A program made the translations under genes and the position numbers. The notes under the pieces are model-generated. The model was not told the DNA's origin and did no database searches. It saw nothing but the letters and a program-made list of their open reading frames with translations. This document shows, piece after piece, positions 5,868-46,739 of a stretch of 64,000 bases of DNA. Numbering within the stretch: the stretch's first letter is position 1; each line of letters begins with the position of its first letter. The DNA is from a virus (taxonomy: Duplodnaviria > Caudoviricetes): positions 1 to 64,000 of IMG/VR virus record IMGVR_UViG_2630968332_000001; one strand, written 5' to 3'.

Positions 5868-6336
5868 TTGACAAGCTAACAAAAAGGGTTTATAGTGTTA
5901 TTGTCGATGAGGTCGACAACACAAAAAAGCATATTTTTTTATTGGAAGCTTCCAATTTCAAAATTTTTGAAAAAAAGAGTTGACAATAAAATATATATAT
6001 GTTTTAATAATGTTGTCGATTAGGTCGACAAATTGGAAGCCGTAGATTGACGGTATATAATATCAATTCATACTTAATTTAATATCATCTTCCAGTAAAG
6101 GAAGCTACAAAATAAAGATTTTTAAAATCTTTTTTAAAAAAGTAGTTGACAAAATGGAAGATATAAATTATATTAAGATTGTCGATTAAAACGACAAGCT
6201 ATATAATAATTTTAGGAAGCTACCACTTCCTAACCTTGAAAAATCAAGTTTTTAAAAGATTTTGATTTTTTTAAAAAAAGTACTTGACAAAATTCAAGGA
6301 AGTAATTATTATATAAATTGTCGATAAGGTCGACAA
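5868..6336 (+). promoter_or_regulatory. Four tandem sigmaA promoters, each followed by a TTGTCGA-N5-TCGACAA operator
   Basis: TTGACA at 5868, 5980, 6146, 6284 with 17-bp spacers to -10 boxes; palindromes at 5901, 6013, 6179, 6318. Confidence 0.85.
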
Positions 6337-6344
6337 AAAAATAA

Positions 6345-6785
6345 AGCCCTTGAGTTGAGGCTTCCGACAATATCAACTTAATTAGTCAATTTAACTGTAG
6401 TCCCCCGCACGTGGGGGAGGTAAAACATAGCGTGCAAAATACACCACTCTTCAGGTGGGGGTGGTGGGTAAAATAAACTACTATCTAATCCCTGGGTAGC
6501 CCTGGGCGTTCTTTGGACAATTTCATAAAAATTAGAGGTTAGCTTCCTCTAGAGTGGTAGCCGTAACACTATAAAAACGGAAGAGCGTATGCAAGCATAG
6601 CATACACACTCGGTCAAAAGCGGGCTTTCAAGGTGGAGTGCACCCTCCCTCGCTTTCACTAGCAATGGTAAAAGCGGTACTGAGTACGTCAATAAAATTG
6701 AGAGCCTGGCGTGATTTGCTTAATAACCCGCATACGGTAGGGGTATCAGAACGGACGTGGAAACACGCATGCTACCAGACTATAT
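6345..6785 (+). ncRNA. Putative large structured RNA, first transcript of the early operon
   Basis: GC-enriched, hairpin-rich, no credible ORF, directly after the promoters. Confidence 0.55.
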
Positions 6786-6933
6786 ATAAATATAGTTTAA
6801 TGTTTGACAAAACTTGTATAGTTTCATACAACCTCTTAATATACCTCAACAAAATCAATTAATTTTGATTTTGTTTTAAAGCACTGTTGAAAAATAGTGT
6901 TTTAAATAAAAATCAAAAACGAGGTATAAAATT

Positions 6934-7227
6934 ATGAGGAAGTTTGTTAAAAGTTTCAATGAAAAAGGCTATGGTTATGTATTAACAGTAGAAGAAGAAA
7001 ACGGCTGGTATTATCCAACTATTGACTTCGGAGATGGTTACATTTGTAAGCCTAATATAAAAGGTCGCGATATATCATGGCTTCGCATGTTTGCAAGATT
7101 CCATGATATTGAACTAGACTTTTTAACAGTATCTAAAGAGTACAAAATTGACTACGCTTTAAAGTTTTTCAACAAGCATATTAATGTAGAAGAAGAGTTG
7201 AAAGACTTTTATATTGAAATGTATTAA
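6934..7227 (+). CDS. Hypothetical early protein
   Basis: GAGG RBS, ORF. Confidence 0.75.
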   Translation: MRKFVKSFNEKGYGYVLTVEEENGWYYPTIDFGDGYICKPNIKGRDISWLRMFARFHDIELDFLTVSKEYKIDYALKFFNKHINVEEELKDFYIEMY

Positions 7228-7258
7228 CCTAATAAAATCTATGAGGAGGTACTTTAAA

Positions 7259-7513
7259 ATGAAAAAAGTACTAAAAAATCTAGACTCAATCATGTTGAGT
7301 CGTAAAGTTGATAGTGATAGTAAAAATACCATCACTAATCTAATGGATAGTAAGAGTATATACACAACACGTACGCTTGCTAGAGTTGGTGTAAAGGTTC
7401 AACCAAGAAGAAGAAAGCGTAGAATTGCTAGACTAATGATTGAACTAGCACCTAAACATAGTGAATTGTCTGATATTGAATATCAGTTACTAGAATTTCA
7501 AGAAGAGATATAA
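7259..7513 (+). CDS. Hypothetical basic early protein
   Basis: GAGGAGG RBS before ATG 7259. Confidence 0.75.
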   Translation: MKKVLKNLDSIMLSRKVDSDSKNTITNLMDSKSIYTTRTLARVGVKVQPRRRKRRIARLMIELAPKHSELSDIEYQLLEFQEEI

Positions 7514-7515
7514 CT

Positions 7516-7591
7516 AACCACGTATAGACAAACTCAAAAACGAGTTGCCACCGTGCAAGTCGGTGGGTGGTTTTACCACTTGAAAAAGTGG
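7516..7591 (+). ncRNA. tRNA-like mini-element plus leader hairpin (E1)
   Basis: aaccac/gtggtt closing stem, ccaccg-TGCAAGT-cggtgg T-arm, downstream hairpin. Confidence 0.6.
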
Positions 7592-7617
7592 ACAAAATTT
7601 AAGAGGAGGTATTCAAA

Positions 7618-8037
7618 ATGAATACACAATTTCAATTATTACACGAACGTAGTTTTAATAAAGGTTTAGACTTTATAGCCATAGACCTTGACGAAGTGGA
7701 GGACTACACAGACACACAAACAGAAAACGGTGTGTTATATGGAATCCTTGATGACCTAGACACGTTCGATTATCTAACTGAAAAGTTAGTAATAGATAGT
7801 AACGATAACTATTACTTACTATTTAGTAATAACGGTTGGTTATTCTTAAATAGTGCAATCAACGTGAAAGATGGTACTATTGGATATTTCAACTATATTG
7901 ACGACTCAGACACTGAGTGTGAATATGAACCAGTTACAACAATATCAAGCCATGATATTAGATTGCTAACTGATGCGATAGATAGATATTATCTATCAGA
8001 TGGTTGCGATATTGTCAAGGTAACTGAAATTAAATAA
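7618..8037 (+). CDS. Acidic hypothetical early protein
   Basis: GAGGAGG RBS; D/E-rich. Confidence 0.8.
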   Translation: MNTQFQLLHERSFNKGLDFIAIDLDEVEDYTDTQTENGVLYGILDDLDTFDYLTEKLVIDSNDNYYLLFSNNGWLFLNSAINVKDGTIGYFNYIDDSDTECEYEPVTTISSHDIRLLTDAIDRYYLSDGCDIVKVTEIK

Positions 8038-8165
8038 ACTCAAAATTGGTTAGTCAAAAAAAGAATTTTTAAGAAAAAATAAATTTTATTGTTGACAATC
8101 CATAAAATAGAGTTAAAATAAAATTGTAAATTAAAAGTTTAGAGAATAAATTGGAGGAATATATC

Positions 8166-8330
8166 ATGAGACTAAATAAAAATGAATTGTTTGAAAAGAT
8201 GGATGAAATGGTGGAATTAATGGGTGCTGAAGCTGTACTTGAGGAACTAGCTCGTGCAATGAGTAGTGATGAATTACAAGAAAATTTAGAATATATTGAT
8301 AGGATGAATGAAACAGACTTATTTAGTTAA
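8166..8330 (+). CDS. Small acidic protein (54 aa, not in ORF track)
   Basis: GGAGG RBS; MRLNKNELFEKMDEMVELMGAEAVLEELARAMSSDELQENLEYIDRMNETDLFS. Confidence 0.8.
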   Translation: MRLNKNELFEKMDEMVELMGAEAVLEELARAMSSDELQENLEYIDRMNETDLFS

Positions 8331-8348
8331 GAGTCTAGAGAATAAATA

Positions 8349-8429
8349 AGGGTAGGTAGTTAGTACGAAGTGGACACTTTCAAGGTGCGACTCCTTGCTA
8401 TCCTATATCACTAAAAATAAATTTAGTGA
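8349..8429 (+). ncRNA. tRNA-like mini-element plus leader hairpin (E2)
   Basis: agggtag/ctatcct stem, caagg-TGCGACT-ccttg T-arm, tcactaaa hairpin. Confidence 0.7.
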
Positions 8430-8458
8430 GAAAAATAAATTTATGGAGGTAGTCTATT

Positions 8459-8683
8459 ATGACTAAAAAGAATTTTAAGATGAAATTACAAGAAACATTA
8501 GAAGGTAAAGGTGCGACAATAAGCACTAATTCTAATGGAGCTACTATCATATTCAACAATGAAACTGATTATAATGATTTTGCACTATTCATAGTACAAA
8601 ATTATTATAGCTTCAGTGAAGGGCTTGTTGTGAGTGGTAGTTATTACGATAACAGTAAAATAATAGTGTTGGATTACAAGTAA
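8459..8683 (+). CDS. Hypothetical early protein
   Basis: GGAGG RBS. Confidence 0.75.
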   Translation: MTKKNFKMKLQETLEGKGATISTNSNGATIIFNNETDYNDFALFIVQNYYSFSEGLVVSGSYYDNSKIIVLDYK

Positions 8684-8694
8684 AAATAAAAACA

Positions 8695-8772
8695 AGGGTA
8701 GGTTAGTACATAGAAAAAATTCTATCAAGGTGCGACTCCTTGCTATCCTATATCACTAATCAATATTAGTGA
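8695..8772 (+). ncRNA. tRNA-like mini-element plus leader hairpin (E3)
   Basis: Same closing stem and T-arm as E2, different internal hairpin. Confidence 0.7.
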
Positions 8773-8799
8773 AAAAAATAATTTTTAGAGGTGTAAAAA

Positions 8800-9132
8800 A
8801 TGAAAGAATATCATGTATATAATGCAACATACACAATTAAAGGAGTAGAAAAAAATTTTGATACTACCGTTACTTGTATAGTTAACGATTATTTTAACGA
8901 CTTATTTTTTGAAATGGAATTTAAAAAATACGATATGTTATGGTATGAAATACTCAATCTAGCATACATGGAGAAAAATAATTCACTATTTTACTTAGAA
9001 GAAACATACCTTGACAACCTGGAGCAAGCTGAAATAGATAATCTATTCAACTACCTCAATAACGAAGTATCAGATGAAAAAATAATAAAAGTATTAAATA
9101 AAAATGGTGTTACTTGCAAATTCTTATATTAA
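8800..9132 (+). CDS. Hypothetical early protein
   Basis: GAGG RBS. Confidence 0.75.
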   Translation: MKEYHVYNATYTIKGVEKNFDTTVTCIVNDYFNDLFFEMEFKKYDMLWYEILNLAYMEKNNSLFYLEETYLDNLEQAEIDNLFNYLNNEVSDEKIIKVLNKNGVTCKFLY

Positions 9133-9144
9133 AAAGAATTTTTA

Positions 9145-9224
9145 AAGGTAGATATTGGTATCAAGTGCAAACTTGTAAGGTTCGAATCCTTACTGCCTTA
9201 TATCACTAAAAATAAATTTAGTGA
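9145..9224 (+). ncRNA. tRNA-like mini-element plus leader hairpin (E4)
   Basis: gtaagg-TTCGAAT-ccttac canonical T-arm; aaggta/tgcctt stem. Confidence 0.75.
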
Positions 9225-9253
9225 GAAAAAAATAAATTTAGGAGGTACTAATC

Positions 9254-9508
9254 ATGTATATAAGTACTATAGACAAACAAACTAATTTTAGAAGGGCTTG
9301 GGATTTCATAGACTGCCACGAAGAATTGAAAAACCTTGACGATTTGAACGTGTGGACACTAGCAAAAGCATTTGATTATATAGACAGACTAAACAGACAC
9401 TTAAAAAGAGGTGTAATAACTGAAAGTGAATTTAATTTTGTAGTAGCTAAACACTTGATAGAAAAATTTAATGATAATGCTTTTACAATTTACACAAACA
9501 TTATATAG
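9254..9508 (+). CDS. Hypothetical early protein
   Basis: AGGAGG RBS. Confidence 0.75.
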   Translation: MYISTIDKQTNFRRAWDFIDCHEELKNLDDLNVWTLAKAFDYIDRLNRHLKRGVITESEFNFVVAKHLIEKFNDNAFTIYTNII

Positions 9509-9572
9509 AAAAAGAATTTTTAGTAAGTAATTTCAGTAGAAAAAAGAATTTAAAGAAATAGAGGTAATTATT

Positions 9573-10265
9573 ATGATAGACAATAACAATGTATATGTAG
9601 ACAACAAAAACAAATTTTATGTAGTGCTAAACGATGAAGATTATGGATATTTTGAAATAGAAAGTTTAAAAGAAGAGGGCTTTCATTTTGTAAGTGATTG
9701 TATGACTAAAGAAGATGAAGAAAGTTTATTAGAAGAAATAAAAACTTTACCTATTGACAAACAAATAGAATTACTGGAATTAGTAGAAGAAAAAGCTCGA
9801 GTAATGAAAGAATTTAGATTTGACCTTGAAAGTCACCAAGAAGAATTTATAGAATGGTACGGTTATTTTGACCGAGAAGAATTTAATGAATGGTTACAAG
9901 AAGAAGTTATACCAGAAAGATTAGACCTAGATTGGCATGATATAGAAACAGTTTGTGAGTATCTAATTCAATACAAAAAAGAATTTTTATTCTATGAATT
10001 AAGAGGTTACAGTCAAGGCGATATAGCGTACGTATGGAATACTGATACAACATTAAAACTCACTAAAGAATATTTAGAAAGTGTATGTTTTGATAGTTGG
10101 ATAAAAATTTACACTAGCAACGAAGAAGGCGATATATTAGACAATTTAGAAGATTTGCCAGGCTACTATATCAGTAACGAAGGTGCAAATATATATTTAA
10201 ATGAATACATGAAAGAAAAATATAATGCGTGGCTTGCTGATTATGAAGTGACTTATAAACAATAA
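9573..10265 (+). CDS. Highly acidic hypothetical protein
   Basis: E/D-rich, RGYSQGD motif. Confidence 0.8.
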   Translation: MIDNNNVYVDNKNKFYVVLNDEDYGYFEIESLKEEGFHFVSDCMTKEDEESLLEEIKTLPIDKQIELLELVEEKARVMKEFRFDLESHQEEFIEWYGYFDREEFNEWLQEEVIPERLDLDWHDIETVCEYLIQYKKEFLFYELRGYSQGDIAYVWNTDTTLKLTKEYLESVCFDSWIKIYTSNEEGDILDNLEDLPGYYISNEGANIYLNEYMKEKYNAWLADYEVTYKQ

Positions 10266-10290
10266 AAGAATTTTTAGGAGTGTATTAATC

Positions 10291-10497
10291 ATGAAAAATA
10301 AAATTGAATATGTAGGTTTCATCTATTGCTTAGATGATATAGAAGTAGAATTTATCGTTAATGGTGTGAAAAAGAATTTATATATCTACAGTAAAGGTAT
10401 AGAAGATATTCTAACATTCATGGACTATCAAGAAAACGAAGATGTAGATACAATACTAGACAACTATTTTGAAACATATAAGCAAGAAATGTTTTAA
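10291..10497 (+). CDS. Small acidic hypothetical protein
   Basis: AGGAG RBS. Confidence 0.7.
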   Translation: MKNKIEYVGFIYCLDDIEVEFIVNGVKKNLYIYSKGIEDILTFMDYQENEDVDTILDNYFETYKQEMF

Positions 10498-10528
10498 CAA
10501 AAAATAAATTTTAGTGGAGGACAAAACA

Positions 10529-10909
10529 ATGAAAAAAATTAACGGTTTAAAGATTGCTAACGTGATAACAATAATTGGTGTGGTGTGTTTAGGTGTATCT
10601 AGTCATGAATACATTAAACAAAATAAGCAACTCAAAAAAGAAAATTTACATCAAGAAACAGTTATTAAAAAGCAAGAAAAAGAATTGACTTATAACGTCA
10701 AAAACCTTGACTTGCAAAGTGGCAATATTATTAAGACAAAAAAGTTTACACTAGAATACTATGATGATAATCAAAAAGATTTTCATATAGTGCTATATCC
10801 TAACGATAAGAATTTAAGGGTAGTTAGTGAACAAGGTCAAGGTGCAAAGGGTGTAGAAATTGAAAGTGTACCTAGTGATTTTAAAGGTACTACTACAATA
10901 ATTCAATAA
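10529..10909 (+). CDS. Membrane-anchored hypothetical protein
   Basis: N-terminal hydrophobic helix; GGAGG RBS. Confidence 0.75.
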   Translation: MKKINGLKIANVITIIGVVCLGVSSHEYIKQNKQLKKENLHQETVIKKQEKELTYNVKNLDLQSGNIIKTKKFTLEYYDDNQKDFHIVLYPNDKNLRVVSEQGQGAKGVEIESVPSDFKGTTTIIQ

Positions 10910-11024
10910 AAATAAATTTCAGTGTTGACAAAATAAAATAAAGAGTTATAATACAGTTATCAAGTTAAAGGTATAGAGAATAACTTGATAACAAAAAATA
11001 ATTTAAGAAAAAGAGGTAATTAAA

Positions 11025-11669
11025 ATGACAAACGAAGAAATTTTTGGAATTATGGATGACGTGGTTAATGCGTGGGGTTTATATATCGAAGATATAAATA
11101 TATATACCAATGACCTAGAGGCTACTATTGTAGGTCAATACGACAGTAGAATTTACTACACTTACAACGATATAGATGAATTAGAAGGTAAGTCAGAAAA
11201 AGAAATTTTTGCAAGTTTAGAAAAGCAACTTATTGAAACACTAGAAGATTTTGACGCCGAAGAAGAGTTCGAAAACTTAGACTTGAATGAAGCAAGAATT
11301 TTAGAAAACATGAAACTTGATGAAAAAGATTTTAAAGAAACCGTATGGATGTATGAACAAAAACAAAAAGGTAAAGAAGTATCAAGTTTTGAATTGGCTT
11401 TGACACATGAATTACAAAAACTAGGTCAACTTATGAATGATGAAGTTTATCCTGGTATGGTAGCAGCATATGCAGTAGATATTTCAAGAGTTAGATGGTC
11501 AAATGAAATTTATGAGTATATGAAAGAAAAAAATATTGATATGAGTAATGCTGATTATTATGACGTTAATTTCTTTAGCATTGTGAAAAGGGATTACTTA
11601 ATAACTGAGTTGTGGACTCAAGGCAAGAAGGATGAGGCGGTAAAACAATTTCAAAAAAACGTATTTTAA
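11025..11669 (+). CDS. Acidic hypothetical protein
   Basis: Own TTGACA/TATAAT promoter near 10925; GAGG RBS. Confidence 0.8.
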   Translation: MTNEEIFGIMDDVVNAWGLYIEDINIYTNDLEATIVGQYDSRIYYTYNDIDELEGKSEKEIFASLEKQLIETLEDFDAEEEFENLDLNEARILENMKLDEKDFKETVWMYEQKQKGKEVSSFELALTHELQKLGQLMNDEVYPGMVAAYAVDISRVRWSNEIYEYMKEKNIDMSNADYYDVNFFSIVKRDYLITELWTQGKKDEAVKQFQKNVF

Positions 11670-11698
11670 AACAGTTAAGAGTCTGGAGAAGAAATAAA

Positions 11699-11774
11699 AA
11701 GGTATCTAGTCGGTAGAAAGTTTACAACTTGTAAGGTTCGAGTCCTTACTACCTTATATATCCTAATCAGGATA
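11699..11774 (+). ncRNA. tRNA-like mini-element plus leader hairpin (E5)
   Basis: gtaagg-TTCGAGT-ccttac; aaggta/tacctt stem. Confidence 0.75.
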
Positions 11775-11805
11775 GAAAAATAATTTTATATAGGAGGTAT
11801 CTATT

Positions 11806-12417
11806 ATGAAAAAGTTTATAGATACAGTAAATAAAAAAGAATTGTTGGTAAGTGAAGAATTGTATTTTGCAAGTGATTTTACAAGTGATTTGTACAGTGA
11901 AGGCATCCATGTTGTAACTAACGAATATATGGATTACTCAGACTCTTTAGAGGATATATGCGAAGCATTTAATAGTTTAGATGATGAATTGAAAAATAAT
12001 TATTTCAGACAACCAACTGAAAAAGAGTTATTAGATGTGTGGAATGAATCGGGATTTGAAAACGAACCTTTTGATAAAGAATTGGCAACGGGATTTTATT
12101 ATGATGATTGCGTTCGTGATGAAATTTCTGAAAATTCTTTTGATTTTTTAGATTGGTTAGATAGTGTAAACAAAAACTTTACCTACATTTCATTAAGTGA
12201 TTATACAGATTTTGTGGATTTAATCGAATATCATCCTTATGGTGAAAAAAATGAATTATTAGAAGATACAGATTATTTAGAAAAAGTATTTTTTAAAGAA
12301 TGGTATTCAGTATTTAGCAAAGATAGTGGGGTAGAAGAAAAATTTAGCTTAGATAATTCAAACATGTTGGATAGATACATGTTTGAAAACTACAATGCTT
12401 TAGAAGTAACTAAGTAA
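11806..12417 (+). CDS. Highly acidic hypothetical protein
   Basis: AGGAGG RBS; D/E-rich. Confidence 0.8.
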   Translation: MKKFIDTVNKKELLVSEELYFASDFTSDLYSEGIHVVTNEYMDYSDSLEDICEAFNSLDDELKNNYFRQPTEKELLDVWNESGFENEPFDKELATGFYYDDCVRDEISENSFDFLDWLDSVNKNFTYISLSDYTDFVDLIEYHPYGEKNELLEDTDYLEKVFFKEWYSVFSKDSGVEEKFSLDNSNMLDRYMFENYNALEVTK

Positions 12418-12479
12418 AGAAAATTTTCCAAGAATTTCAATAACAAAAAATAATTCAAGTAAAAAGGGTGGTAATCAAT

Positions 12480-12677
12480 ATGTACAATCAGGAATTTTAC
12501 GGAGGGCTTTTCATGATGAGTTTTGTTGCGTTGGTAATAATTCTGATGGGTAGCTATCATGCTGTTTGTTGGTTATTCAAGAAAAGAAGGTTTCTTTTAA
12601 AGTTGATGTTATTCATACCATACACAATTTTGACTTTATTGTTGGTCGGTATCAAAGCATTAAATAACAAAATATAA
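12480..12677 (+). CDS. Small membrane protein
   Basis: Two hydrophobic segments. Confidence 0.65.
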   Translation: MYNQEFYGGLFMMSFVALVIILMGSYHAVCWLFKKRRFLLKLMLFIPYTILTLLLVGIKALNNKI

Positions 12678-12711
12678 GAATAAAAAATAATTATTAAAGG
12701 TGGTAATTAAA

Positions 12712-13524
12712 ATGACAAAAACAGAAATTAAAGTAAATGCAAAAGAATTAGTAAAAGGATACAAAGAAATTTTAGTACATGTTTCAAAATCAAGTTTCAG
12801 ACCTATATTAGCAACACTTAATCATGTAGTAGAAAACAATAAATTAACTTTAGTTGCTACTGATACACATTCACTAGGTAAATTAACGCTTGATTGTGAA
12901 AATAACAATGATGTTGAGTTTGCAGTACCTAGAAAAGCAATTCAAGCAGTAGCAAAGTTAAAAAATAAAGAATTAGTTGATAAAGAAATTATCCTTGAAT
13001 TTTCTGATAACAAAATCAATTACATTGTGAATGGTAAAGAATTTATTAGCTCAATGACAGAAAGTAATTATCCAAGTGTTGAAAGAATTTTACCAGTGGT
13101 AAACGAAGATAGAAATATTACGTTCAATATTCGTGAATTAAAAGAATTTATCAAACATATTAAAGAAACTGGTTACCACAGAAAGAATTGGAATAATAAA
13201 ACAATTCAATCAAATATTAAATTTATCAAGGGTCAATTCGTATTTAGTTATGAATACGAAGATGAAGAAGGTAGTGTCTACTACAAAAAAGAAAACATTG
13301 ATTGTGTTGTAACTAAGGGGTTCACTGATGATTACGATATTAACTTAAATATCTATGAATTGGAAAAACACGTAAATAAATTCTTAGTTGGTAACAAAAC
13401 AATCACATTAGCTTTTGTTGAAAAAGAATTTATGAATAGTCAAAACGTCAGACCAATTCAAGTAACATATAACGGTTTAGATAATTACGTTGGTGTGTTA
13501 GCACCAATGAGGGCTTTTAGATAG
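12712..13524 (+). CDS. Beta sliding clamp (DnaN)-like protein, two-domain length
   Basis: SFRPILA, LVATDTHSL, NYPSVERILP, C-terminal VLAPMR match DnaN motifs. Confidence 0.75.
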   Translation: MTKTEIKVNAKELVKGYKEILVHVSKSSFRPILATLNHVVENNKLTLVATDTHSLGKLTLDCENNNDVEFAVPRKAIQAVAKLKNKELVDKEIILEFSDNKINYIVNGKEFISSMTESNYPSVERILPVVNEDRNITFNIRELKEFIKHIKETGYHRKNWNNKTIQSNIKFIKGQFVFSYEYEDEEGSVYYKKENIDCVVTKGFTDDYDINLNIYELEKHVNKFLVGNKTITLAFVEKEFMNSQNVRPIQVTYNGLDNYVGVLAPMRAFR

Positions 13525-13595
13525 TAGAAAAATAAAGAAAAATTAGTTAGAAAATCGAAAACAAAAATAATTTAAAAATTAAAGGGTGGTTAATT

Positions 13596-13985
13596 ATGAT
13601 GGAAAATAACTTATTTGTAGCAACAATGTTAGGCTGTGGCACTAATGACTTGGATGTATTTTTTGGTAGATTAGATAAATATGAAGATACGGTATTTTTG
13701 CATGACGAAGAATTTTCATATGAAAAATTAATCGAAGAAACAAAATTTATGTTTGGTAGTGAATATGGTTTTAACGATTTAATGGAGGCTTTAGACTGCA
13801 TGGCGGTTGATAGTGCATTAGGTCAAATAGAGAAATCAGAAAAATTTAATGAATTTGATGATTTAGTACATGAAAGTATGCAAGGTTGGTACAACTATGC
13901 AGACAATAACTTTTACTTTGACAATGAAGAAGAGTTAGAAAAATTTGATGAATGGAAAGAATTTTCAGAATTATTAGGTTTATAA
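13596..13985 (+). CDS. Highly acidic hypothetical protein
   Basis: D/E-rich ORF. Confidence 0.75.
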   Translation: MMENNLFVATMLGCGTNDLDVFFGRLDKYEDTVFLHDEEFSYEKLIEETKFMFGSEYGFNDLMEALDCMAVDSALGQIEKSEKFNEFDDLVHESMQGWYNYADNNFYFDNEEELEKFDEWKEFSELLGL

Positions 13986-14000
13986 AGGGTGGTAACAAAA

Positions 14001-14261
14001 ATGAAAAACACAATTCAAGTAAACAATGTAAGTAATAAGGTTTTAGAAATGTTGGTAGATGATTTTGAAAATAAGTATTCTTTTGATACCAGTTATTTTG
14101 TAGACTTCATCTTCTATGGAGTAAAAGAAAAAATTCTAGGTATGAAACCAATGAAATACATTATTGTTTTGAGTAATGCAAACAAAATAATTTTAACTGA
14201 CGACAATCAACTATACGAAGATATGTACAAAAATAATTTTAAAGAATATATGGAAAACTAG
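14001..14261 (+). CDS. Hypothetical protein
   Basis: AAGGGTGG RBS. Confidence 0.7.
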   Translation: MKNTIQVNNVSNKVLEMLVDDFENKYSFDTSYFVDFIFYGVKEKILGMKPMKYIIVLSNANKIILTDDNQLYEDMYKNNFKEYMEN

Positions 14262-14275
14262 AGGAGGAGTTAATT

Positions 14276-14515
14276 ATGAAAGTAAGAAATTTTAAAGAAT
14301 TAAACAGTGAATATCCAATGGTTGTTGAGTTGGTAGTATATAAACCAACTTTTAGAAAGCGTGTAGATATTGTTGTAAATCAAGAAATAACTTTAGCTTT
14401 AGCAAGTAATATTGTTGCTTATGTAATACCAAGAAGTCTAAACGATAGAGTGAGAAAAGTCTGGGATATGGATTACATAGACAATCAGACAATCATTACA
14501 GTTGATTATGAATAA
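14276..14515 (+). CDS. Hypothetical protein
   Basis: GAGGAGG RBS. Confidence 0.7.
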   Translation: MKVRNFKELNSEYPMVVELVVYKPTFRKRVDIVVNQEITLALASNIVAYVIPRSLNDRVRKVWDMDYIDNQTIITVDYE

Positions 14516-14545
14516 AAGAATTTTTAACAAAGGGTGGTAATTAAG

Positions 14546-14785
14546 ATGAAAGAAAGAAAATTTAATGTGTACGTGAAAGATAGATTAGTAGGTCAAATAA
14601 CATATGATAACTGGGTTTACTTTGATGATTATCGTACCAATGAATACGATATTGACCTAGATATAAAAGATTTAGATGAGGCAATGGAAACTTTGATTGA
14701 TTACTACATTAAAGATATACCTTGCAATTATGAAGATGTTGGTTTTGTTGAGTTAGTTAATAAAGAAAATTTAGTTGAAATTTAA
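14546..14785 (+). CDS. Acidic hypothetical protein
   Basis: AAGGGTGG RBS. Confidence 0.7.
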   Translation: MKERKFNVYVKDRLVGQITYDNWVYFDDYRTNEYDIDLDIKDLDEAMETLIDYYIKDIPCNYEDVGFVELVNKENLVEI

Positions 14786-14832
14786 GGCTCGGATAAAATA
14801 ACGATTTTATAAACGCTATAAACGTTGGTATG

Positions 14833-14923
14833 CAGGGTAATTGGTATAATACAATAAAATAATTTATTGCATTTTAAGGTTCGATTCCTTTTTACCTTGT
14901 CAGTTTGAAACACAATTCAAACT
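14833..14923 (+). ncRNA. tRNA-like mini-element plus leader hairpin (E6)
   Basis: cagggtaa/ttaccttg stem, aagg-TTCGATT-cctt T-arm. Confidence 0.65.
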
Positions 14924-14950
14924 AAAAAAAATAATTTTAGGAGTGATTAT

Positions 14951-15256
14951 ATGCAAGCTATACGATATGGCGAAGCCTTGAATTATCTGTTTGAGTTTTG
15001 CTTGTCTACTGGTAAAGAATTTCCGAAAGACTGGCGAAAGATAGACAATAGATTTTTTAATGGAATAAAAGATAATAAATTGAAAGATGAAGTGAAGATG
15101 TGTGTTGATGTTATAAGTAACCATTCAATTAGTAAGAATGGAAAAATTATACCTAAATCAAAACGTGAAAGAAAAATTAATAGAGTGTTTAGACTGCAAA
15201 AATACTCGAACATGATATTAACTTTCATTACGGTAAACATACAAAAAGCATTTTAG
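14951..15256 (+). CDS. Hypothetical protein
   Basis: AGGAG RBS. Confidence 0.7.
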   Translation: MQAIRYGEALNYLFEFCLSTGKEFPKDWRKIDNRFFNGIKDNKLKDEVKMCVDVISNHSISKNGKIIPKSKRERKINRVFRLQKYSNMILTFITVNIQKAF

Positions 15257-15267
15257 AAAGCGAAGGA

Positions 15268-15546
15268 TTGCGTTTGAGCAATATGTACTCAGCATTAGAT
15301 AATCATGATGATTACTTATCACAAAGAGAAAATGGTAAAAGAATTTTCTTGATTGATAGAGAAATGATTATCCATAAAACATATGATGATGTACACGTTG
15401 CAAGTAAAGAATACGGTGTCCAACCTTACAATATTTACGATTGGTGCAATCGAGGTGCTTATCGTTTTAATGGAAAAAGAATGATTAAAGCACATACGTA
15501 CAGTAACTTAATATGCAAAAATAAAGAATTTCATTATCAATTTTAG
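15268..15546 (+). CDS. Small NUMOD1-like DNA-binding protein
   Basis: TYDDVHVASKEYGV...IYDWCN pattern. Confidence 0.5.
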   Translation: MRLSNMYSALDNHDDYLSQRENGKRIFLIDREMIIHKTYDDVHVASKEYGVQPYNIYDWCNRGAYRFNGKRMIKAHTYSNLICKNKEFHYQF

Positions 15547-19660: not shown

Positions 19661-19722
19661 GATATAGTTTATTTTAATTATTTATATTATATCAAACTGT
19701 GTTATATGATATAATATATAGT

Positions 19723-20328
19723 ATGAAAGCAAATGAAGTAATGAAATTATTGCAAATTAGTCGTTCCACTTTATTAAGGTGGCGAAAAGATGGAATTTTA
19801 AAAGCTACTAAATTGCCTTCTGGGCAATATGATTGGGACGCTAATTCTGTTTTTAAAATATTAAATAAAGGTGAAGTTCGTGGTGTTTATTTATATGCTA
19901 GAGTGTCTACACCTAAACAAAAACAAGACCTTGAAAACCAAATTGAAAACCTGCAAAGTTTTGCGATGAAAAATGGTTATCAAGTTAAAGGTCTATACAA
20001 AGATATAGCTAGTGGAATTTCTTTTGAAAAAAGAAAGGAGTTTTTTGAATTATTAGATCTTGTAATTAGTGGTAAAGTATTAAAGATTATTATCACCTAC
20101 AAGGATAGATTAAGTCGTGTTGGTTTCGATCTGTTTAAATACTTATTTTCCAAGTATCATACCGAGATAATTGTGATGTCAGAATTAACCGATAAAAAGA
20201 CAGACCAACAAGAAATATTTGAAGAAATCATTAGCTTGTTGCACGCATTTTCAATGAGAATGTACTCGAGTAGAAGAAAGAAAATTAAAGAAGCTTTGGA
20301 AGATAAGGAGGTGAATAAGGATGGTTAA
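19723..20328 (+). CDS. tnpA: IS607 serine recombinase transposase
   Basis: MerR-like HTH, YARVST, DIASG, YKDRLSRVGF. Confidence 0.95.
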   Translation: MKANEVMKLLQISRSTLLRWRKDGILKATKLPSGQYDWDANSVFKILNKGEVRGVYLYARVSTPKQKQDLENQIENLQSFAMKNGYQVKGLYKDIASGISFEKRKEFFELLDLVISGKVLKIIITYKDRLSRVGFDLFKYLFSKYHTEIIVMSELTDKKTDQQEIFEEIISLLHAFSMRMYSSRRKKIKEALEDKEVNKDG

Positions 20329-21664
20329 ACAGCAAAAATCAAAGAAGAAAGTCATAAAAACTTTTAAAGAAGTAAGAGCAGAGAAAACGGAAGTTCAATA
20401 TGAGTATTTGGTGGAAAAGCATATTATTAAATCTAATGATGCACGTTATGCTATTTTAGATAAATACGCTCATCTATCCAATAATGTCTACAACCAAGCT
20501 CTATATCGTTTTAGACAGGCTTTCTTTAAGGGTAAGTGGCTGAGTTACGAAAAACTAGACAAATCATTTAAACAATCTTTTAATCAAAAGGACTGTATGC
20601 TGTATCGTTCTATGAAAAGTGTACATTTAGCTCAACAAATTTTAAAGTTAGTCAATCAAAATATGACTTCTTGGAATAAAGCTCGTAAAGCATATTTAAA
20701 GGCACCGCAAAAGTTCACTGGCAAGCCTAAAATACCCAAATATAAACCCAAAGGCGGTAAAAATATTGTTATCGTAGATAACCAAACTGCTAAATTAAGA
20801 GCTAATGGAATTGTAGAAATACCAGTGATGGATAGCTTGAAAATTAAGTTACAACACAAAAAAACTAATAAAATTCAACAAGTTAGAATAATCCCTAGAA
20901 ATAATACTTTTGTAATTGAAATAGTTTATAAAACTAATAAGGTTATTGACTACAAAGAAGATAATGGACGCTATTTAACGATTGACCCAGGACTTGATAA
21001 TGCCTTTACGTTGGCATCTAATGTTAAAGGATTCAAACCTGTCATTATTAATGGACGTCCTTTAAAGTCAGTCAATCAATACTATAACAAGCAAAAAGCT
21101 AGATTAACTAGAATTTATGACTTGTCAAAACAAAATCGTAATACTAAGCGTTTAAATAAACTTGATTTTTATCGTAATCAAAAAATGTTAAAATTCGCTC
21201 ATGAAGCAAGTAAACGCATTGTTGAGATAGCGTTAAGCCATGAGTTAAACACGATTGTTATTGGTAAAAATAAAGGGCAAAAACGTTCTAGTAATATGGG
21301 AAAACGAATAAACCAAAACTTTATTGGTATTCCACATCAAAAAATGCTTGAGATGATTGAATATAAAGCTAATTTAGCAGAGATAGTTGTAATTCAAGCT
21401 AACGAAGCTTATACAAGTCAAACTTCATTTTTAGATAATGAAATACCAATTAAACAAAATGGCGATAAAGCTCGTAAACGTAAAGGGTTAAGTCCTGTCA
21501 AAAGACGCGTTAAACGTGGTTTATTTAAATCAAATAAAGGTATCTTAATTAACGCTGATGTTAATGGAGCGTTACAGATATTAAGAAAAGTAGTACCGAA
21601 TGCTTTTGCTGACGGTATAGATGGAATCGGATTAGTTCCAGTTAAGCTAAACTTAAATTTCTAA
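20321..21664 (+). CDS. tnpB: TnpB RNA-guided nuclease (IS607 type, rearranged RuvC-II)
   Basis: IDPGLDN, IVIGKN with alternative Glu in NEAYTS, NADVNGA; no zinc-finger Cys. Confidence 0.93.
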   Translation: MVKQQKSKKKVIKTFKEVRAEKTEVQYEYLVEKHIIKSNDARYAILDKYAHLSNNVYNQALYRFRQAFFKGKWLSYEKLDKSFKQSFNQKDCMLYRSMKSVHLAQQILKLVNQNMTSWNKARKAYLKAPQKFTGKPKIPKYKPKGGKNIVIVDNQTAKLRANGIVEIPVMDSLKIKLQHKKTNKIQQVRIIPRNNTFVIEIVYKTNKVIDYKEDNGRYLTIDPGLDNAFTLASNVKGFKPVIINGRPLKSVNQYYNKQKARLTRIYDLSKQNRNTKRLNKLDFYRNQKMLKFAHEASKRIVEIALSHELNTIVIGKNKGQKRSSNMGKRINQNFIGIPHQKMLEMIEYKANLAEIVVIQANEAYTSQTSFLDNEIPIKQNGDKARKRKGLSPVKRRVKRGLFKSNKGILINADVNGALQILRKVVPNAFADGIDGIGLVPVKLNLNF

Positions 21665-41813: not shown

Positions 41814-41891
41814 ATCGGATAGCTTAATGGCAGAGCGTACGAGTATGATAACGATACTTGTAAGGTTTGGTGTTCAATTCATCAATCCGAT
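41814..41891 (+). ncRNA. tRNA-like element with aberrant anticodon arm
   Basis: atcggat/atccgat stem, D-arm agcttaatggcagagc, T-loop TTCAATT, elongated middle arm. Confidence 0.65.
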
Positions 41892-41894
41892 ATT

Positions 41895-43180: not shown

Positions 43181-43238
43181 GGTTGCCACAGGTGCAGTAA
43201 AGGTGCATTTTATAGGTTCGACTCCTACTGTGGTAATT
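43181..43238 (+). ncRNA. tRNA-like mini-element
   Basis: ttgccacag/ctgtggtaa stem, tagg-TTCGACT-ccta T-arm. Confidence 0.7.
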
Positions 43239-43395
43239 GGGGTAGAGCATGACTACCCCGAAAGCACAATAACGGTAAGTGCATAGATTTGTGTAATTTT
43301 TTGACATTGAATCTGAATTAATTCATGAACAGGTTCATTACGACTTACGGATTGGTTCATGATTTAAGATTTCCTCCTTTTGAATTAGAAGGTTC

Positions 43396-43453
43396 GCAAC
43401 GTAGCTCAACTGGTAGAGCAAAGGATGATGTGGGTTCGAGTCCCACCGTTGCA
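43396..43453 (+). ncRNA. Anticodon-arm-less tRNA-like element
   Basis: gcaacg/cgttgc acceptor, TAGCTCAACTGGTAGAGC D-arm, gtggg-TTCGAGT-cccac T-arm, only a ~10-nt linker. Confidence 0.8.
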
Positions 43454-43500
43454 ATTAGCCAATATGGCTATAAATATACAATAGAAAAGAGGTGAGATAG

Positions 43501-44757
43501 ATGAAGACAATGAGTGAGTTAAAATACCACTATGGCTTGAAGATGTGTATTCACCCTAGCACGAAGCAAAAGCAAATCATTAAGATGAACAGTGATGTAT
43601 CTAGGGCTGTATATAACGCTATGGTTGCGATTGATAAAGAGTTGTATCAACTCAAACAGGTAAAACTACCTATTGATACAATCCAAACACGTATTGCTGA
43701 ATTAGAAAAACGTAAGAAGGCTCAAAACTATTTAGCAACGCACTATACTTACATGAAACACCCTTATATTGATAGTCATTGTCGTTCTATGGCAATGCGT
43801 TCTTATAAAGCTGCATGGAATATGTTTAGAAAAGTTCATAACGTTGGTACACCTAATTTTCATAAGAAAACTTACGAGGAGAAGTATCAAACAAGTGGAA
43901 CTTATACGAGTAAGAAGAAACCAGTTAATATGTGGACTGGCTCAATTAGATTTGTAGACAATAAACATATTAATATTCCTAAGCTGGGTATTATTCGTGT
44001 GAGTGGTTCGTATAGAAAACTACTAGATAATAAAGATGATATTAGAATTGGCACAACTACTATTTCTAAAAATGCTTTTGGTATCTACTACGTTTCTATG
44101 CAGTTGGGTTCAGATACACCTTTTGTTAAAGAATTGCCTAAAACTAATTCTCAAGTTGGAATCGACTTGAATACAGATAACTTCTTAACAACAAGCGAAG
44201 GTAATGTTATAGCTAACCCGAGATTTTATAGAACTATCAAGGGTCGATTGGCTAAAGCACAACGTAAATTATCACGCAGACAAGTTAGAGCCAAGAAAGA
44301 AGGACGCTCCTTACGTGATAGCAAGAATTACCAAAAGCAACGCATAGTGGTATCAAAACTTATGAATAAAGTGCGTAATCAACGTAATAAATTCTTAGAT
44401 GAAATGTCAATAACACTTATCAAGAACCACGATTTGGTTGTGGCTGAAAATCTAAGAAGTAAAAATATGTTGAGAAATCACGCTTTGGCTATGTCTATTA
44501 GTGATGTAGGTTGGAGAACATTCCTACAAAAACTAGAATACAAAGCTGAATTATATGGTAAGACTTTTGTTACTGTAAATCCTAAGAATACTACACAAAC
44601 ATGTAGCGAATGTGGGCATGTTATGGGAACAAAAGATACGGATAAGCTAACACTAAAAGATAGAAGTTGGGCTTGTCCTAGCTGTAATACTTACCATATA
44701 CGTGATGTAAATGCAGCAAAGAATATCCTAGACAAAGGATTAAAACAATTAGCCTAG
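43501..44757 (+). CDS. tnpB: TnpB (IS200/IS605 type), CRISPR-adjacent, no tnpA
   Basis: GIDLN, VAENL, CSECG...CPSC, RDVNAAKNI: RuvC D-E-D and zinc finger intact. Confidence 0.93.
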   Translation: MKTMSELKYHYGLKMCIHPSTKQKQIIKMNSDVSRAVYNAMVAIDKELYQLKQVKLPIDTIQTRIAELEKRKKAQNYLATHYTYMKHPYIDSHCRSMAMRSYKAAWNMFRKVHNVGTPNFHKKTYEEKYQTSGTYTSKKKPVNMWTGSIRFVDNKHINIPKLGIIRVSGSYRKLLDNKDDIRIGTTTISKNAFGIYYVSMQLGSDTPFVKELPKTNSQVGIDLNTDNFLTTSEGNVIANPRFYRTIKGRLAKAQRKLSRRQVRAKKEGRSLRDSKNYQKQRIVVSKLMNKVRNQRNKFLDEMSITLIKNHDLVVAENLRSKNMLRNHALAMSISDVGWRTFLQKLEYKAELYGKTFVTVNPKNTTQTCSECGHVMGTKDTDKLTLKDRSWACPSCNTYHIRDVNAAKNILDKGLKQLA

Positions 44758-44759
44758 AA

Positions 44760-44938
44760 ATAGGTAGTCCGTTTGTCTGTTGCGGACTCAAAAGCATTTG
44801 GTAATTACCATGTAAGACCTTTATTTCAGATTTTTCTGATACAAAGGCAACGGTGTATCTAATGAAATTTTGGCAACCCTAAAAAATTAGGAGTTCCCAA
44901 AACCCTAGTACTGTGGGATTTGTTAGTCTGTTTTTAGT
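44760..44938 (+). ncRNA. omegaRNA/tracrRNA-like scaffold
   Basis: Structured region between tnpB stop and array; hairpin loop GTCTGT complementary to repeat end ACAGAC. Confidence 0.65.
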
Positions 44939-45155
44939 GTGTTACCCATATGTGCGTGGGGACAGACTGGAATACGTACAAACGATATACTCAAACTCAA
45001 GGTGTTACCCACATACGTGTGGGGCAGACTACGGCAAGTTTTTTAAAGACAATGAAGAATATGTGTTACCCATATGTGCGTGGGGACAGACTATATGTAG
45101 TTAAGAGTTTAGCGAACAAACGAAAGTGCTACTCATATGTGTCAAAGAACATATA
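44939..45155 (+). CRISPR. Mini CRISPR array: 3 repeats plus a degenerate 4th, 3 spacers
   Basis: GTGTTACCCATATGTGCGTGGGGACAGACT at 44939 and 45063, variant at 45002, degenerate at 45126; spacers 33, 32, 33 nt. Confidence 0.9.
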
Positions 45156-45165
45156 GCTATATTTA

Positions 45166-45207
45166 CTCACCTCGGTAGTTCTGTTCTGGTTCAACTCCAG
45201 AAGTGAG
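45166..45207 (+). ncRNA. tRNA-like mini-element closing the array
   Basis: ctcac/gtgag stem, tctgg-TTCAACT-ccaga T-arm. Confidence 0.6.
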
Positions 45208-45209
45208 CT

Positions 45210-45612
45210 TTGTACCAACTCCTGATACACCTCTAATCAAGGCAAGACCGTTATGCGTCTTTTAATGTAGGACAGGTGCGGTACGGCATCTCATTAGTAC
45301 GTTACTCGAGGGTACGGAAGGTGTTTTGCAAGGGATATACTATGCCAAGTGTGGAGGTTGATTACCTCGCAGCAGATAGCTACTGTTGTCATACGTGCGA
45401 GCTTGGTGTGTGTAGTTAGATGTGCCGATTATTTAGTAAGTTATCTCAAAGTGGCGAGATGACTTTTTCGCTGGGGATAAGCCCAATCGTTTAGATATAT
45501 CCACCAGTTGCTTTAGCCAGTTATCCTCTCGTAGCAGTGGAGTTCTTTCGCCGAACTTGCTAGGGAACAGATTGTTGAGGCGAATGCAATTTAATGTTCG
45601 ATAACTGGTTAT
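45210..45612 (+). ncRNA. Putative ~400-nt structured RNA
   Basis: GC-enriched, hairpin-rich, no credible ORF, bracketed by a tRNA-like element and tRNA-Ser. Confidence 0.55.
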
Positions 45613-45616
45613 ATTT

Positions 45617-45726: not shown

Positions 45727-46001
45727 TTCGTGTGTATATAGGAACAAATCTGATTGTATTTATAATTTTGGTTTGTACAAACAAAAATCTTATAATATTT
45801 ATAATTATCTTATTGTTTTAGAACAAATTGCGACACCTCCTTTACTAAACCGCCCGCTTTTTGTCCTAACATGCAATTTTTAAAATAAAAGCCTGTGAGT
45901 GAAAGTAGCTACTGTTTTAAGCAAGTGCCCCGCTACTTAAATTTTTAAAAGTGAAATTTTAGCAAAACTAAAGCCAGATTTGTTCCTACATGCACACGAA
46001 T
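45727..46001 (+). ncRNA. Long stem-closed RNA with anti-SD segment
   Basis: ~27-bp inverted repeat at the ends; internal CACCTCCTTT. Confidence 0.5.
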
Positions 46002-46013
46002 TAGAGAAAGAAG

Positions 46014-46739
46014 TTGGTTAGTATTATTTTCGTGAATGCCCCGATAGGTGCGGGTAAGACAAGCCTAACACGTATGCTCGTTGCAGATTTAGGCACTAAA
46101 GGTTTCTATGAAGAAGTTGATAAGATACCTATGCTCAAAGAGTTTTACGCACAAGGCGAAGAAAGTAGAAATGATTTAAGTTTTGCTTTACAAATCGCCT
46201 TTTTAAATTACCGTTTTGGACAATTACGTGAAGGACTGCATTTGGCTGAACGTGGAATTGTCAATACAGTATATGATAGTTCCTTGATTTCTGACGCTTT
46301 AATGAGTTTTAACTTGTATAAGCGTGGTGAATTTCCAGAAGTTATGTACAATCTTTACGTAAGTTTAAATCAAAATATGGTTTCTGATGTTGCGGGTCAT
46401 CCGTTCAATGGTTATCCAGATTTAATTGTATTCCTAGATATTCCATTTGATTTAATGCTAGACCATATTTCTAAGCGTGGTCGTGATATGGAAGATATAC
46501 GTAAAGACCCTAAGCTAGTAGATTACTATTATTCTGTATGGAACACATACAATTCATGGTACGACAGTTTCGGTCAAGCACCAGTAGTTCGTGTGGATAT
46601 GAGTAAATACGATTTCGTAAACAACTTATCCGACCGTAATACCGTACTTAATCTAATTGAACAAAAACTGGTTGATTTAGGTAAATTAACACAAGATGAG
46701 TTCGATAAAATCAAAGCAAAACGTGATAAGGAGGTGTAG
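46014..46739 (+). CDS. Deoxynucleoside kinase
   Basis: APIGAGKTSL, FALQIAFLNYRF, PDL, RGRDME. Confidence 0.9.
   Translation: MVSIIFVNAPIGAGKTSLTRMLVADLGTKGFYEEVDKIPMLKEFYAQGEESRNDLSFALQIAFLNYRFGQLREGLHLAERGIVNTVYDSSLISDALMSFNLYKRGEFPEVMYNLYVSLNQNMVSDVAGHPFNGYPDLIVFLDIPFDLMLDHISKRGRDMEDIRKDPKLVDYYYSVWNTYNSWYDSFGQAPVVRVDMSKYDFVNNLSDRNTVLNLIEQKLVDLGKLTQDEFDKIKAKRDKEV

Follow-up and report, generated by a model that had tools for sequence, protein, structure and literature searches.

In animal mitochondria and in co-transcripts of transfer RNAs (tRNAs) and messenger RNAs (mRNAs), tRNA shapes lying between cistrons mark the sites at which the transcript is cut, a principle called tRNA punctuation that has so far been documented in organelles and in a few bacterial and archaeal transcripts. 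Among phages, Arbiol et al. reportedly described promoter-early stem-loop (PeSL) cassettes in 2010 for T4-type phages. Plant mitochondria contain t-elements, which, according to the available part of Forner et al. 2007 (PMC1920247), carry the motif GGTTCRANYCC and are cut by RNase P and RNase Z to make mRNA ends. The smallest relevant substrates are the model RNase P minihelices of McClain, Guerrier-Takada and Altman 1987, as described in the available part of PMC11143913; according to the same source, RNase P cleaves hairpins made of an acceptor stem, a T-stem and a T-loop alone and also processes some phage RNAs and mRNAs. Here we describe six miniature tRNA-like elements (E1–E6, starting at 7516, 8349, 8695, 9145, 11699 and 14834) between early genes of a Caudoviricetes phage (IMG/VR record IMGVR_UViG_2630968332_000001; 129,218 base pairs (bp), 33.9% G+C), and weigh the reading that host tRNA-processing enzymes cut the early messages at these elements. 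The window analysed is the first 64 kilobases (kb) of the record, and coordinates are positions in this window unless marked as genome positions. Between about 6.6 and 50 kb the genes are encoded by the + strand, after which coding switches to the – strand.

All six elements lie on the + strand between + strand open reading frames (ORFs), where the first-pass annotation had placed tRNA-like intergenic elements. In their common shape, the closing stem encloses a small internal hairpin and a T-arm, and the 3′ strand of the T-arm joins the closing stem directly. The acceptor-like stem and the T-stem measure 7+5 bp in E2–E5 and 6+6 bp in E1, forming a 12-bp stack, and 7+4 bp with one mismatch in E6. 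The T-loop is 7 nucleotides (nt) long, with T, C and A at loop positions 1, 3 and 5 in all copies inspected. The site of the anticodon arm holds a hairpin with a short loop (3–4 nt in E2–E5, 6 nt in E1 and 4 nt in E6), and an anticodon arm with a 7-nt loop is found in none of the six. Because the internal hairpin loop is just 3–6 nt long, the E1–E6 RNAs cannot decode. A short D-like segment with GG is present in E4, E5 and E6.

E1 (7516–7572) is built from a 6-bp closing stem (7516–7521/7567–7572), a small internal hairpin and a 6-bp T-stem with its 7-nt loop (7548–7566). E2 (8349–8404) has a 7-bp acceptor-like stem, a 5-bp internal hairpin with a 4-nt loop, and a 5-bp T-stem with the loop TGCGACT; E3 (8695–8749) is a similar tRNA-like element, and E4 (9145–9199) has the T-loop TTCGAAT and GCAA in the loop of its internal hairpin. 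E5 (11699–11755) is a full miniature cloverleaf of 57 nt, with an acceptor stem, a 4-bp D-like arm, a 5-bp arm with a 3-nt loop, and a T-arm. E6 (14834–14898) combines a 7-bp closing stem, a 7-bp internal hairpin and a T-arm; its closing stem reaches 8 bp if 14833 pairs with 14899, and the T-arm base holds a T·T mismatch. In the E6 orthologue of a related sequence (L108) the T-stem base pair is restored. Minimum-energy folding recovered the closing stem, internal hairpin and T-arm of E1, E3, E4 and E5, and the closing stem and second hairpin alone for E6, while E2 folded by itself adopted another minimum-energy structure. Fold z-scores for E1–E6 were –3.49, –2.64, –3.56, –3.69, –1.73 and –2.80, respectively.

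Standard tRNA detectors pass over these elements. ARAGORN, run on the window, called a tRNA-Gln and a tRNA-Ser and none of E1–E6, and the Rfam tRNA model (RF00005) matched one of the six, E6, at 18.7 bits (E=5.6), under the cut-off of 29. Since ARAGORN calls none of them and the highest Rfam tRNA score falls that far below threshold, the elements are not canonical tRNAs.

A second structure follows each element at a fixed distance. As the first-pass annotation claimed, a second hairpin, an A-rich leader, a ribosome-binding site (RBS) and an ATG come after 6/6 early elements. Exactly three unpaired nucleotides separate the closing stem from the second hairpin in every case, and the RBS and ATG lie 46–55 nt past the closing stem. 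The second hairpins occupy 7576–7591 (E1; ATG at 7618), 8408–8429 (E2; ATG at 8459), 8753–8772 (E3; ATG at 8800), 9203–9224 (E4; ATG at 9254), 11759–11774 (E5; ATG at 11806) and 14902–14923 (E6; ATG at 14951), all on the + strand and each with its leader and RBS. Those of E2–E6 are followed by A-runs, not T-runs, and no second hairpin is listed as an intrinsic terminator. The 3-nt spacing holds in eight of eight cases when a tRNA lacking an anticodon arm (43396–43452) and the true tRNA-Gln of this phage are counted with E1–E6; therefore, after a cut behind the discriminator the new 5′ end would lie about 2 nt ahead of the hairpin. The arrangement recurs in distant relatives: G005 (position 48073) has a mini tRNA-like element whose hairpin, likewise 3 nt away, precedes an A-rich leader, RBS and ATG, and a tRNA without anticodon arm, again 3 nt before a hairpin, is present at 84622 of G003 and in a Limosilactobacillus reuteri plasmid.

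The leader contains the motif AAA[TG]AA[AT]TT[TA] (e.g. AAAGAATTTTTA). Its occurrences on the + strand number 43, of which 39 are in 8.0–18.8 kb, with about 12 expected genome-wide. Most stand directly upstream of an RBS and some copies lie inside ORFs; the motif may be a translation or RNA-binding signal of early genes.

Consensus promoters are found on the + strand at 5868, 6146, 6284, 8092 and 10925, with those at 8092 and 10925 among the strong sites. The 60 best promoter-like sites (9–12 of 12 matches; 61 weaker ones rank below them) include none on the + strand within a module, and between 7.6 and 17.5 kb the sole terminator-like + strand site is the E1 T-arm (7548–7566, then GTGGTTTT). 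Because of the promoters at 8092 and 10925 and the lack of any terminator besides the E1 T-arm, long polycistronic early transcripts are expected. All copies are sense-oriented beside coding ORFs, no terminator stands between them and the upstream promoters at 8092 and 10925, and they would thus be transcribed.

The promoters at 5868, 6146 and 6284 are near-consensus and of sigma-70 type, and an extra TTGACA lies near 5981. At the expected start site of each promoter in 5868–6340 (+) there is a palindrome, TTGTCGA-N5-TCGACAA, resembling an operator or a common 5′ hairpin of primary transcripts. The promoter cluster is followed by a G+C-rich stretch of about 450 nt (6345–6800, +) with no convincing ORF and a fold z-score of –2.87, conserved in the relative G002; no Rfam match at E≤1 falls within it, and it is possibly an unrecognised structured RNA.

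To describe the pattern in strict form we used a descriptor with 7/7 acceptor pairs, 5/5 T-stem pairs, a T-loop of TKCRANY and the 3′ acceptor strand immediately after the T-stem. It found 8 sites in the 129,218-bp genome, compared with 0, 0, 0, 0, 0, 2, 0, 0, 1 and 0 (mean 0.3) in ten first-order Markov shuffles. Relaxed to 6/7 acceptor pairs, it gave 15 sites vs 1–6 in shuffles; at 6/7 and 4/5 pairs there was no excess (35 vs 21–39).

The first-pass annotation had suggested a covariance search in Rfam and in related genomes, and its two halves turned out differently: Rfam matches to E1–E6 are all below threshold, and related genomes do hold copies. A covariance model made from E2–E5 (R1) recovered E2–E6 plus three copies in each of two phages that are about 90% identical to this one over the conserved part of the region (11 matches, E<0.01). 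R1 scores were 97.7 bits for E2, 86.5 for E3, 94.1 for E4 and 74.5 for E5; E6 scored 58.6 bits with a second model (R2), and E1 was missed by both. Scanning metagenomes with the protein encoded upstream of E5 yielded four more loci with 11 further element copies, and in two of these loci that protein is just 44–47% identical.

Pooling gave 22 copies, 18 of them distinct, from seven related sequences. In this alignment, which was fitted to the model and is thereby biased toward structure, standard pairs fill 95.7% of cells, against 37–52% when the 3′ partners are slid by 1–3 columns; in the acceptor and T-stem helices pairing reaches 95–98%. Double-sided changes occur in 16/23 pairs, covariation is present in all four helices, and its extent was equalled by 0/500 shuffles. 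The covarying stems claimed by the first-pass annotation are therefore borne out. Unambiguous single changes include an acceptor pair that changes from A-T to G-C and a T-stem pair that changes from G-C to A-T in sequence L109, and a T-stem base pair that switches between C-G and T-A among copies. The second hairpin takes at least six different sequences, and the internal hairpin of E5 has been swapped for an unrelated one in G002 and L108, in a surrounding context that is nearly identical. Where the E1 orthologues of G002 and L109 differ from E1, the changes are confined to loops. In L109 and L110 the ORFs beside E5 have 58–63% DNA identity, whereas its tRNA-like part reaches 98%. These patterns indicate that the structure of the elements is under selection. 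All copies (22/22) are co-oriented with genes, and the fold belongs to the sense strand, i.e. to the transcript, because the 15 G·U combinations among paired cells would be A·C mismatches on the opposite strand.

Wider searches returned mixed material. A generic T-arm/acceptor pattern matched 34 stretches in IMG/VR; besides the two relatives, these were mostly true tRNAs or chromosomal and prophage-border elements like the SpF41 RNA of Streptococcus, and we rejected both of these groups as relatives of the early-region modules. R2, applied to 12 more distant records, gave 18 matches, of which 17 were folded (a match in the L. reuteri chromosome, L100, was left out): 5/17 are tRNAs called by ARAGORN, one is a doubtful ARAGORN call, and the others resemble tRNAs but have no standard anticodon arm.

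Copies outside the early region are more diverse. The first-pass annotation had listed three, at 43181, 45166 and 52761 (–), which differ in quality. That at 43181–43258 (+) is real but weak: in a tRNA region, a tRNA-like part (43181–43237) is followed by a GC-rich hairpin (43238–43258), with a fold z-score of –3.42 and an R1 score of 16.1 bits (E 0.65–0.82). The one at 52762–52827 (–) has a tRNA-like fold, is co-oriented with minus-strand genes and lacks a second hairpin; an RBS and a GTG lie 20–31 nt downstream. The weak copy at 45166–45207 (+) has a 5-bp closing stem and a 6-bp T-stem with the loop TTCAACT; it has no clear second hairpin and is matched by neither R1 nor R2. The adjacent region 45208–45616 seemed structured by eye and has a fold z-score of just –0.81.

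Three more structures were absent from the first-pass list. At 43396–43470 (+) a 57-nt tRNA without an anticodon arm (43396–43452; Rfam tRNA 46.1 bits) keeps the acceptor stem, D-arm and T-arm and is followed by 3 nt, a hairpin (43456–43470), a leader and an RBS. Behind it comes a TnpB-type ORF (43501–44757) with OrfB_IS605 and Cas12f1-like TNB domains. Another odd tRNA (41814–41892, +) has a 9-bp anticodon-like stem with a 7-nt loop, scores 32.4 bits with the Rfam model (in a search of a 4.5-kb region) and is not called by ARAGORN. Outside the window, at genome position 115001–115031 (–; locus L040), a 12-bp hairpin with the T-loop TTCGACT amounts to a bare acceptor/T-arm minihelix. It sits between the capsid-like gene, immediately upstream of it, and the next late gene, and has been retained through compensatory changes in a relative (G014, position 19484).

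Three TnpB-type genes are present in the window (19699–21664, +; 43501–44757, +; 60598–61764, –). The one at 19699–21664 adjoins a serine recombinase, forming an IS607-like pair, and the one at 60598–61764 is followed by an Rfam Transposase-1 RNA (60509–60567, 72.4 bits). The gene at 43501–44757, with its 3′ non-coding part, is directly followed by a 31-nt repeat in four copies (44938–45155, +), which are spaced 61–63 nt start to start and have the look of a mini-array of CRISPR (clustered regularly interspaced short palindromic repeats) type; two copies are identical and the other two are 61% identical to these.

True tRNAs occupy the same slot as the mini elements. The tRNA-Gln of this phage keeps the 3-nt spacing before a hairpin, and a comparable layout was seen in the isolated Lactococcus lactis phage PMBT69 (PQ036876.1; 127,738 bases, 127.7 kb), which we take to be a member of the 949 group. 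Bases 1–78000 of its genome were scanned. The annotated PMBT69 tRNAs lie between same-strand protein genes, and 5/8 of them (Met at 44779, Arg, Pro, Asn and Cys) have a hairpin within 0–2 nt; in at least one case, behind tRNA-Asn, the hairpin leads into an A-rich leader, an RBS and an annotated coding sequence (CDS). PMBT69 also carries two unannotated 45-nt elements (44630–44674 and 45990–46034), in each of which a 14-nt connector links a 7-bp acceptor stem to a T-arm. The hairpin follows at 3 nt in the former, which overlaps a CDS (44635–44751) annotated as a hypothetical protein, and at 2 nt in the latter, with a leader and gene behind it. Other unannotated tRNA-like elements between PMBT69 genes are found at 50075–50144, 50791–50858 and 51399–51442. 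True tRNAs need excision by tRNA-processing nucleases to function. The simplest inference is that the mini elements are handled like true tRNAs, because they match tRNAs in position, orientation and geometry.

Set against tRNA punctuation, the phage elements differ in that most of the marks have no anticodon loop and do not decode, and that a minority of junctions is marked. PeSL cassettes are said to be, like the modules described here, repeated intergenic stem-loops flanking small variable early ORFs in a plastic region; unlike those cassettes, the present modules have no promoter and are tRNA-shaped, and recombination at them is weakly supported. SpF41 (a small RNA of Streptococcus; Rfam RF02435) has the same consensus build of closing stem, small hairpin, T-arm with GGUUCGAAUCC, 3-nt spacer and second hairpin. 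Its second hairpin is a terminator with a U-run, whereas that of the phage module is followed by an A-rich leader and a gene, and its cut-off of 52 bits was reached by none of our elements (best E3, 30.6 bits, E=0.11). With plant t-elements, as far as these are described in the available text (PMC1920247), the phage elements share a non-canonical tRNA-like fold, a conserved T-arm and a place next to coding regions in mRNA precursors. The t-element motif is exact in E4, E5 and E6 (3/6); E2 and E3 are one letter off (GGTGCGACTCC), and E1 is further off and keeps the 7-nt T-loop. The edges of t-elements in plants are mapped 5′ and 3′ ends of mRNAs, credited to RNase Z and RNase P. Unlike t-elements, the modules found here belong to a phage and would depend on bacterial host enzymes, are much smaller (55–64 nt), come in several copies per operon, and always have a hairpin 3 nt downstream followed by a leader and RBS. 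The resemblance to t-elements is one of function and design, not descent. Like the minihelix substrates described in PMC11143913, the elements stack an acceptor stem on a T-stem with its T-loop, and the hairpin at genome position 115001–115031 (–) is exactly such a 12-bp helix; those substrates are synthetic, with a 3′ CCA, and the phage elements encode no CCA.

Within the full-text literature available to a search (subscription journals and supplements lay outside its scope), no anticodon-less tRNA-like modules punctuating phage operons are described, and ‘tRNA-like’ does not occur in the available text of a paper on the 949-group phage PhiL47. The principle, tRNA punctuation and t-elements, is known; what is new, as far as can be told, is that the elements occur in a phage, are so small, are coupled in a fixed way to a 5′ hairpin and leader, and are spread over large phages of Lactobacillales.

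The observations on which a mechanism can be built are the structure, covariation, strand, position and fixed geometry of the elements and the use of the same slot by true tRNAs. We propose that the elements are miniature tRNA-derived signals at which host RNase Z and/or RNase P cut the early messages, in the manner of t-elements, and we give this proposal an even chance of being right. The first-pass annotation had likewise inferred that tRNA punctuation divides the early transcript into monocistronic mRNAs with a protective 5′ hairpin, a reading that our results support in part. The cleavage steps and the protective effect of the hairpin that we infer are as follows. The elements would lie inside long early transcripts, where they keep the 12-bp acceptor/T-stem stack and the T-loop and have lost the anticodon loop. 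Host RNase Z would most likely cut after the discriminator base, within the 3-nt linker, with RNase Y as an alternative enzyme for this cut, and RNase P may additionally act at the 5′ edge. A cut in the linker would let the downstream message start about 2 nt before the hairpin, which would shield it from 5′-to-3′ decay, while the upstream message would end in a compact tRNA-like fold or be freed from it. In Bacilli, according to the available part of PMC3997798, RNase J1 degrades monophosphorylated cleavage products 5′-to-3′ and structures at the 5′ end strongly stabilise mRNAs. No RNA-processing enzyme was found in a Pfam scan of 30 larger phage proteins, a subset of all ORFs; this is neutral for the proposal, because host enzymes would serve.

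Several points weigh against cutting by tRNA enzymes. E2–E5 start with an A-U pair preceded by an A, which is not known to be a preferred context for RNase P. E1–E3 have G at the second T-loop position and a D-like segment without GG. A stable hairpin 2 nt past the RNase Z site might hinder the enzyme rather than help it. Elements are present at just 6 of about 20 gene junctions between 7 and 16 kb, and most junctions thus need no punctuation. Finally, RNase Y favours AU-rich single strands just upstream of a structure, as stated in the available part of PMC3997798, and could cut the AUAU linker with no need to recognise a tRNA.

This last point leads to an alternative in which the modules are uncut cis-acting mRNA structures, or are cut by RNase Y in the AU linker, with no cleavage by tRNA enzymes. 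Uncut structures may insulate cistrons by blocking exonucleases, keep the leader and RBS single-stranded, or tune translation. In favour of this, the module is invariably part of a 5′ untranslated region, with a conserved leader at its end whose motif is concentrated in the early region (39/43 in 8.0–18.8 kb), and the cutting of AU-rich single strands beside structures by RNase Y (PMC3997798) suits the second variant. A plain hairpin would suffice for any of these roles, however, and this alternative gives no reason for the T-loop motif and the 12-bp stack to be kept through many compensatory changes or for true tRNAs to stand in the same place; we consider it improbable. A little less so, and still unlikely in our view, is the possibility that the excised tRNA-like RNAs of 45–65 nt are themselves functional, as early bulk decoys or sponges for host proteins that bind the acceptor/T-arm half. 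Possible targets are toxins of tRNA 3′-end defence, the CCA-adding enzyme, RNase P or Z, and EF-Tu. The presence of several different versions within the earliest operons would fit, as would the retention of precisely the half that such proteins recognise and the loss of the anticodon loop, the target of anticodon nucleases. Plant t-elements, in the available part of PMC1920247, persist as stable RNAs with non-encoded 3′ C and A residues, and the tRNA-like part of E5 is far better conserved than the adjacent genes. Decoys would not account for the fixed 3-nt distance to the hairpin, the leader and the RBS, nor for the single copies near late genes, at 52762 and at genome position 115001. No partner protein was identified, and a literature search on phage tRNA-like decoys gave nothing similar in the text it covered. 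A combination of our proposal with such decoys, which we also rate as improbable, would have the module excised by host tRNA enzymes, splitting operons and at the same time freeing mini-tRNAs that can be CCA-tailed and soak up acceptor-end factors, including abortive-infection toxins.

At the DNA level, the elements could be recombination linkers, i.e. homology patches or recombinase sites for swapping small early-gene cassettes, and the first-pass annotation had suggested that the repeats aid such shuffling. The number of cassettes between elements does vary among relatives: the relative G001 carries one element in the place of E2, ORF 8459, E3, ORF 8800 and E4, and G002 has yet another arrangement of elements and ORFs. 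Related contigs join 8331 to 9143 and 8451 to 9511, E2 and E4 differ in their tRNA-like parts but are followed by an almost identical hairpin and leader (about 45 nt), and the phage encodes two tyrosine recombinases and one serine recombinase. A naive breakpoint count (32/68) was rejected as inflated by matches between paralogous elements. In a test of long blocks, 6/28 syntenic block ends fell at a module vs 10.5% expected (p=0.067), so the shuffling claim is weakly supported. Breakpoints are also seen at junctions without elements (9511, 10501–10529 and 13993/14269), and the divergence downstream of E5 begins about 60 nt inside the ORF, away from the element. The G·U pairs, the kept T-loop positions and the compensatory changes point instead to selection on an RNA fold. 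Shuffling at modules is possible, and a recombination role can be compatible with an RNA function, as its side effect; as the explanation of the elements we find it doubtful, about on a par with the combined reading above. Least probable by far, and disfavoured, is that the elements are decaying, functionless tRNA pseudogenes or unusual terminators. They resemble tRNAs and fail tRNA detectors, and the E1 T-arm with the GTGGTTTT behind it is listed as terminator-like, but decay or termination would not explain the compensatory changes in 16/23 pairs, copies better conserved than adjoining genes or the fixed geometry to the next hairpin, and the second hairpins are followed by A-runs rather than T-runs.

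The phage itself is part of a poorly charted group. Its capsid-like protein (precomputed Pfam PF27364) has relatives with 53–67% identity on contigs of 100–145 kb from L. reuteri and Liquorilactobacillus, one of them the 138.5-kb ‘plasmid’ of L. reuteri ATCC 53608, and is about 32% identical to capsids of large siphoviruses of Bacillus, Brevibacillus and Lactococcus, including PMBT69. Pieces of the region are present in DNA sequencing runs of gut metagenomes, from pig and chicken among others. A search for RNA sequencing runs containing the phage found none, and four runs labelled as possible RNA proved to consist of contigs that are probably DNA. Based on the capsid relatives and this occurrence, the phage is therefore a member of the little-studied large phages or phage-plasmids of Lactobacillaceae. 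Megablast of 7000–15500 and blastn of the E5 module gave no relative at the DNA level among isolated phages. The clamp-like protein encoded at 12700–13524 has weak matches, and its two relatives in IMG/VR are the same two phages that came up in the element search. Among ten small ORFs flanking the elements none has a PHROG family and nine have no Pfam match; the tenth has a sub-threshold match to GreA_GreB_N (17 bits vs a cut-off of 24.5).

The gene after E6 (14951–15546, +) is split in this phage into ORFs of 101 and about 90 amino acids; in G001 and G002 it is one ORF of 198–199 amino acids. On the – strand, 54731–54785 matches the Rfam salivarius-1 RNA (56.3 bits vs a cut-off of 50), a motif known from Ligilactobacillus salivarius and consistent with the suspected host group.

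The proposal that the elements are cut by host tRNA enzymes is directly testable, because an isolated dairy phage, for which a laboratory host exists, carries the same module. If cutting takes place, the module would give operon design in Gram-positive bacteria a small natural part that says ‘cut here, protect both ends’, and it would add a class of tRNA-shaped RNAs of 45–65 nt that are overlooked by standard tRNA finders and by phage annotation. If excised elements also acted as decoys, a single module would serve both gene expression and counter-defence in large Lactobacillales siphoviruses. If the cuts are real, they would explain how each small early gene obtains a separate message stability from few promoters, and they would represent tRNA punctuation operating in a bacterial virus.

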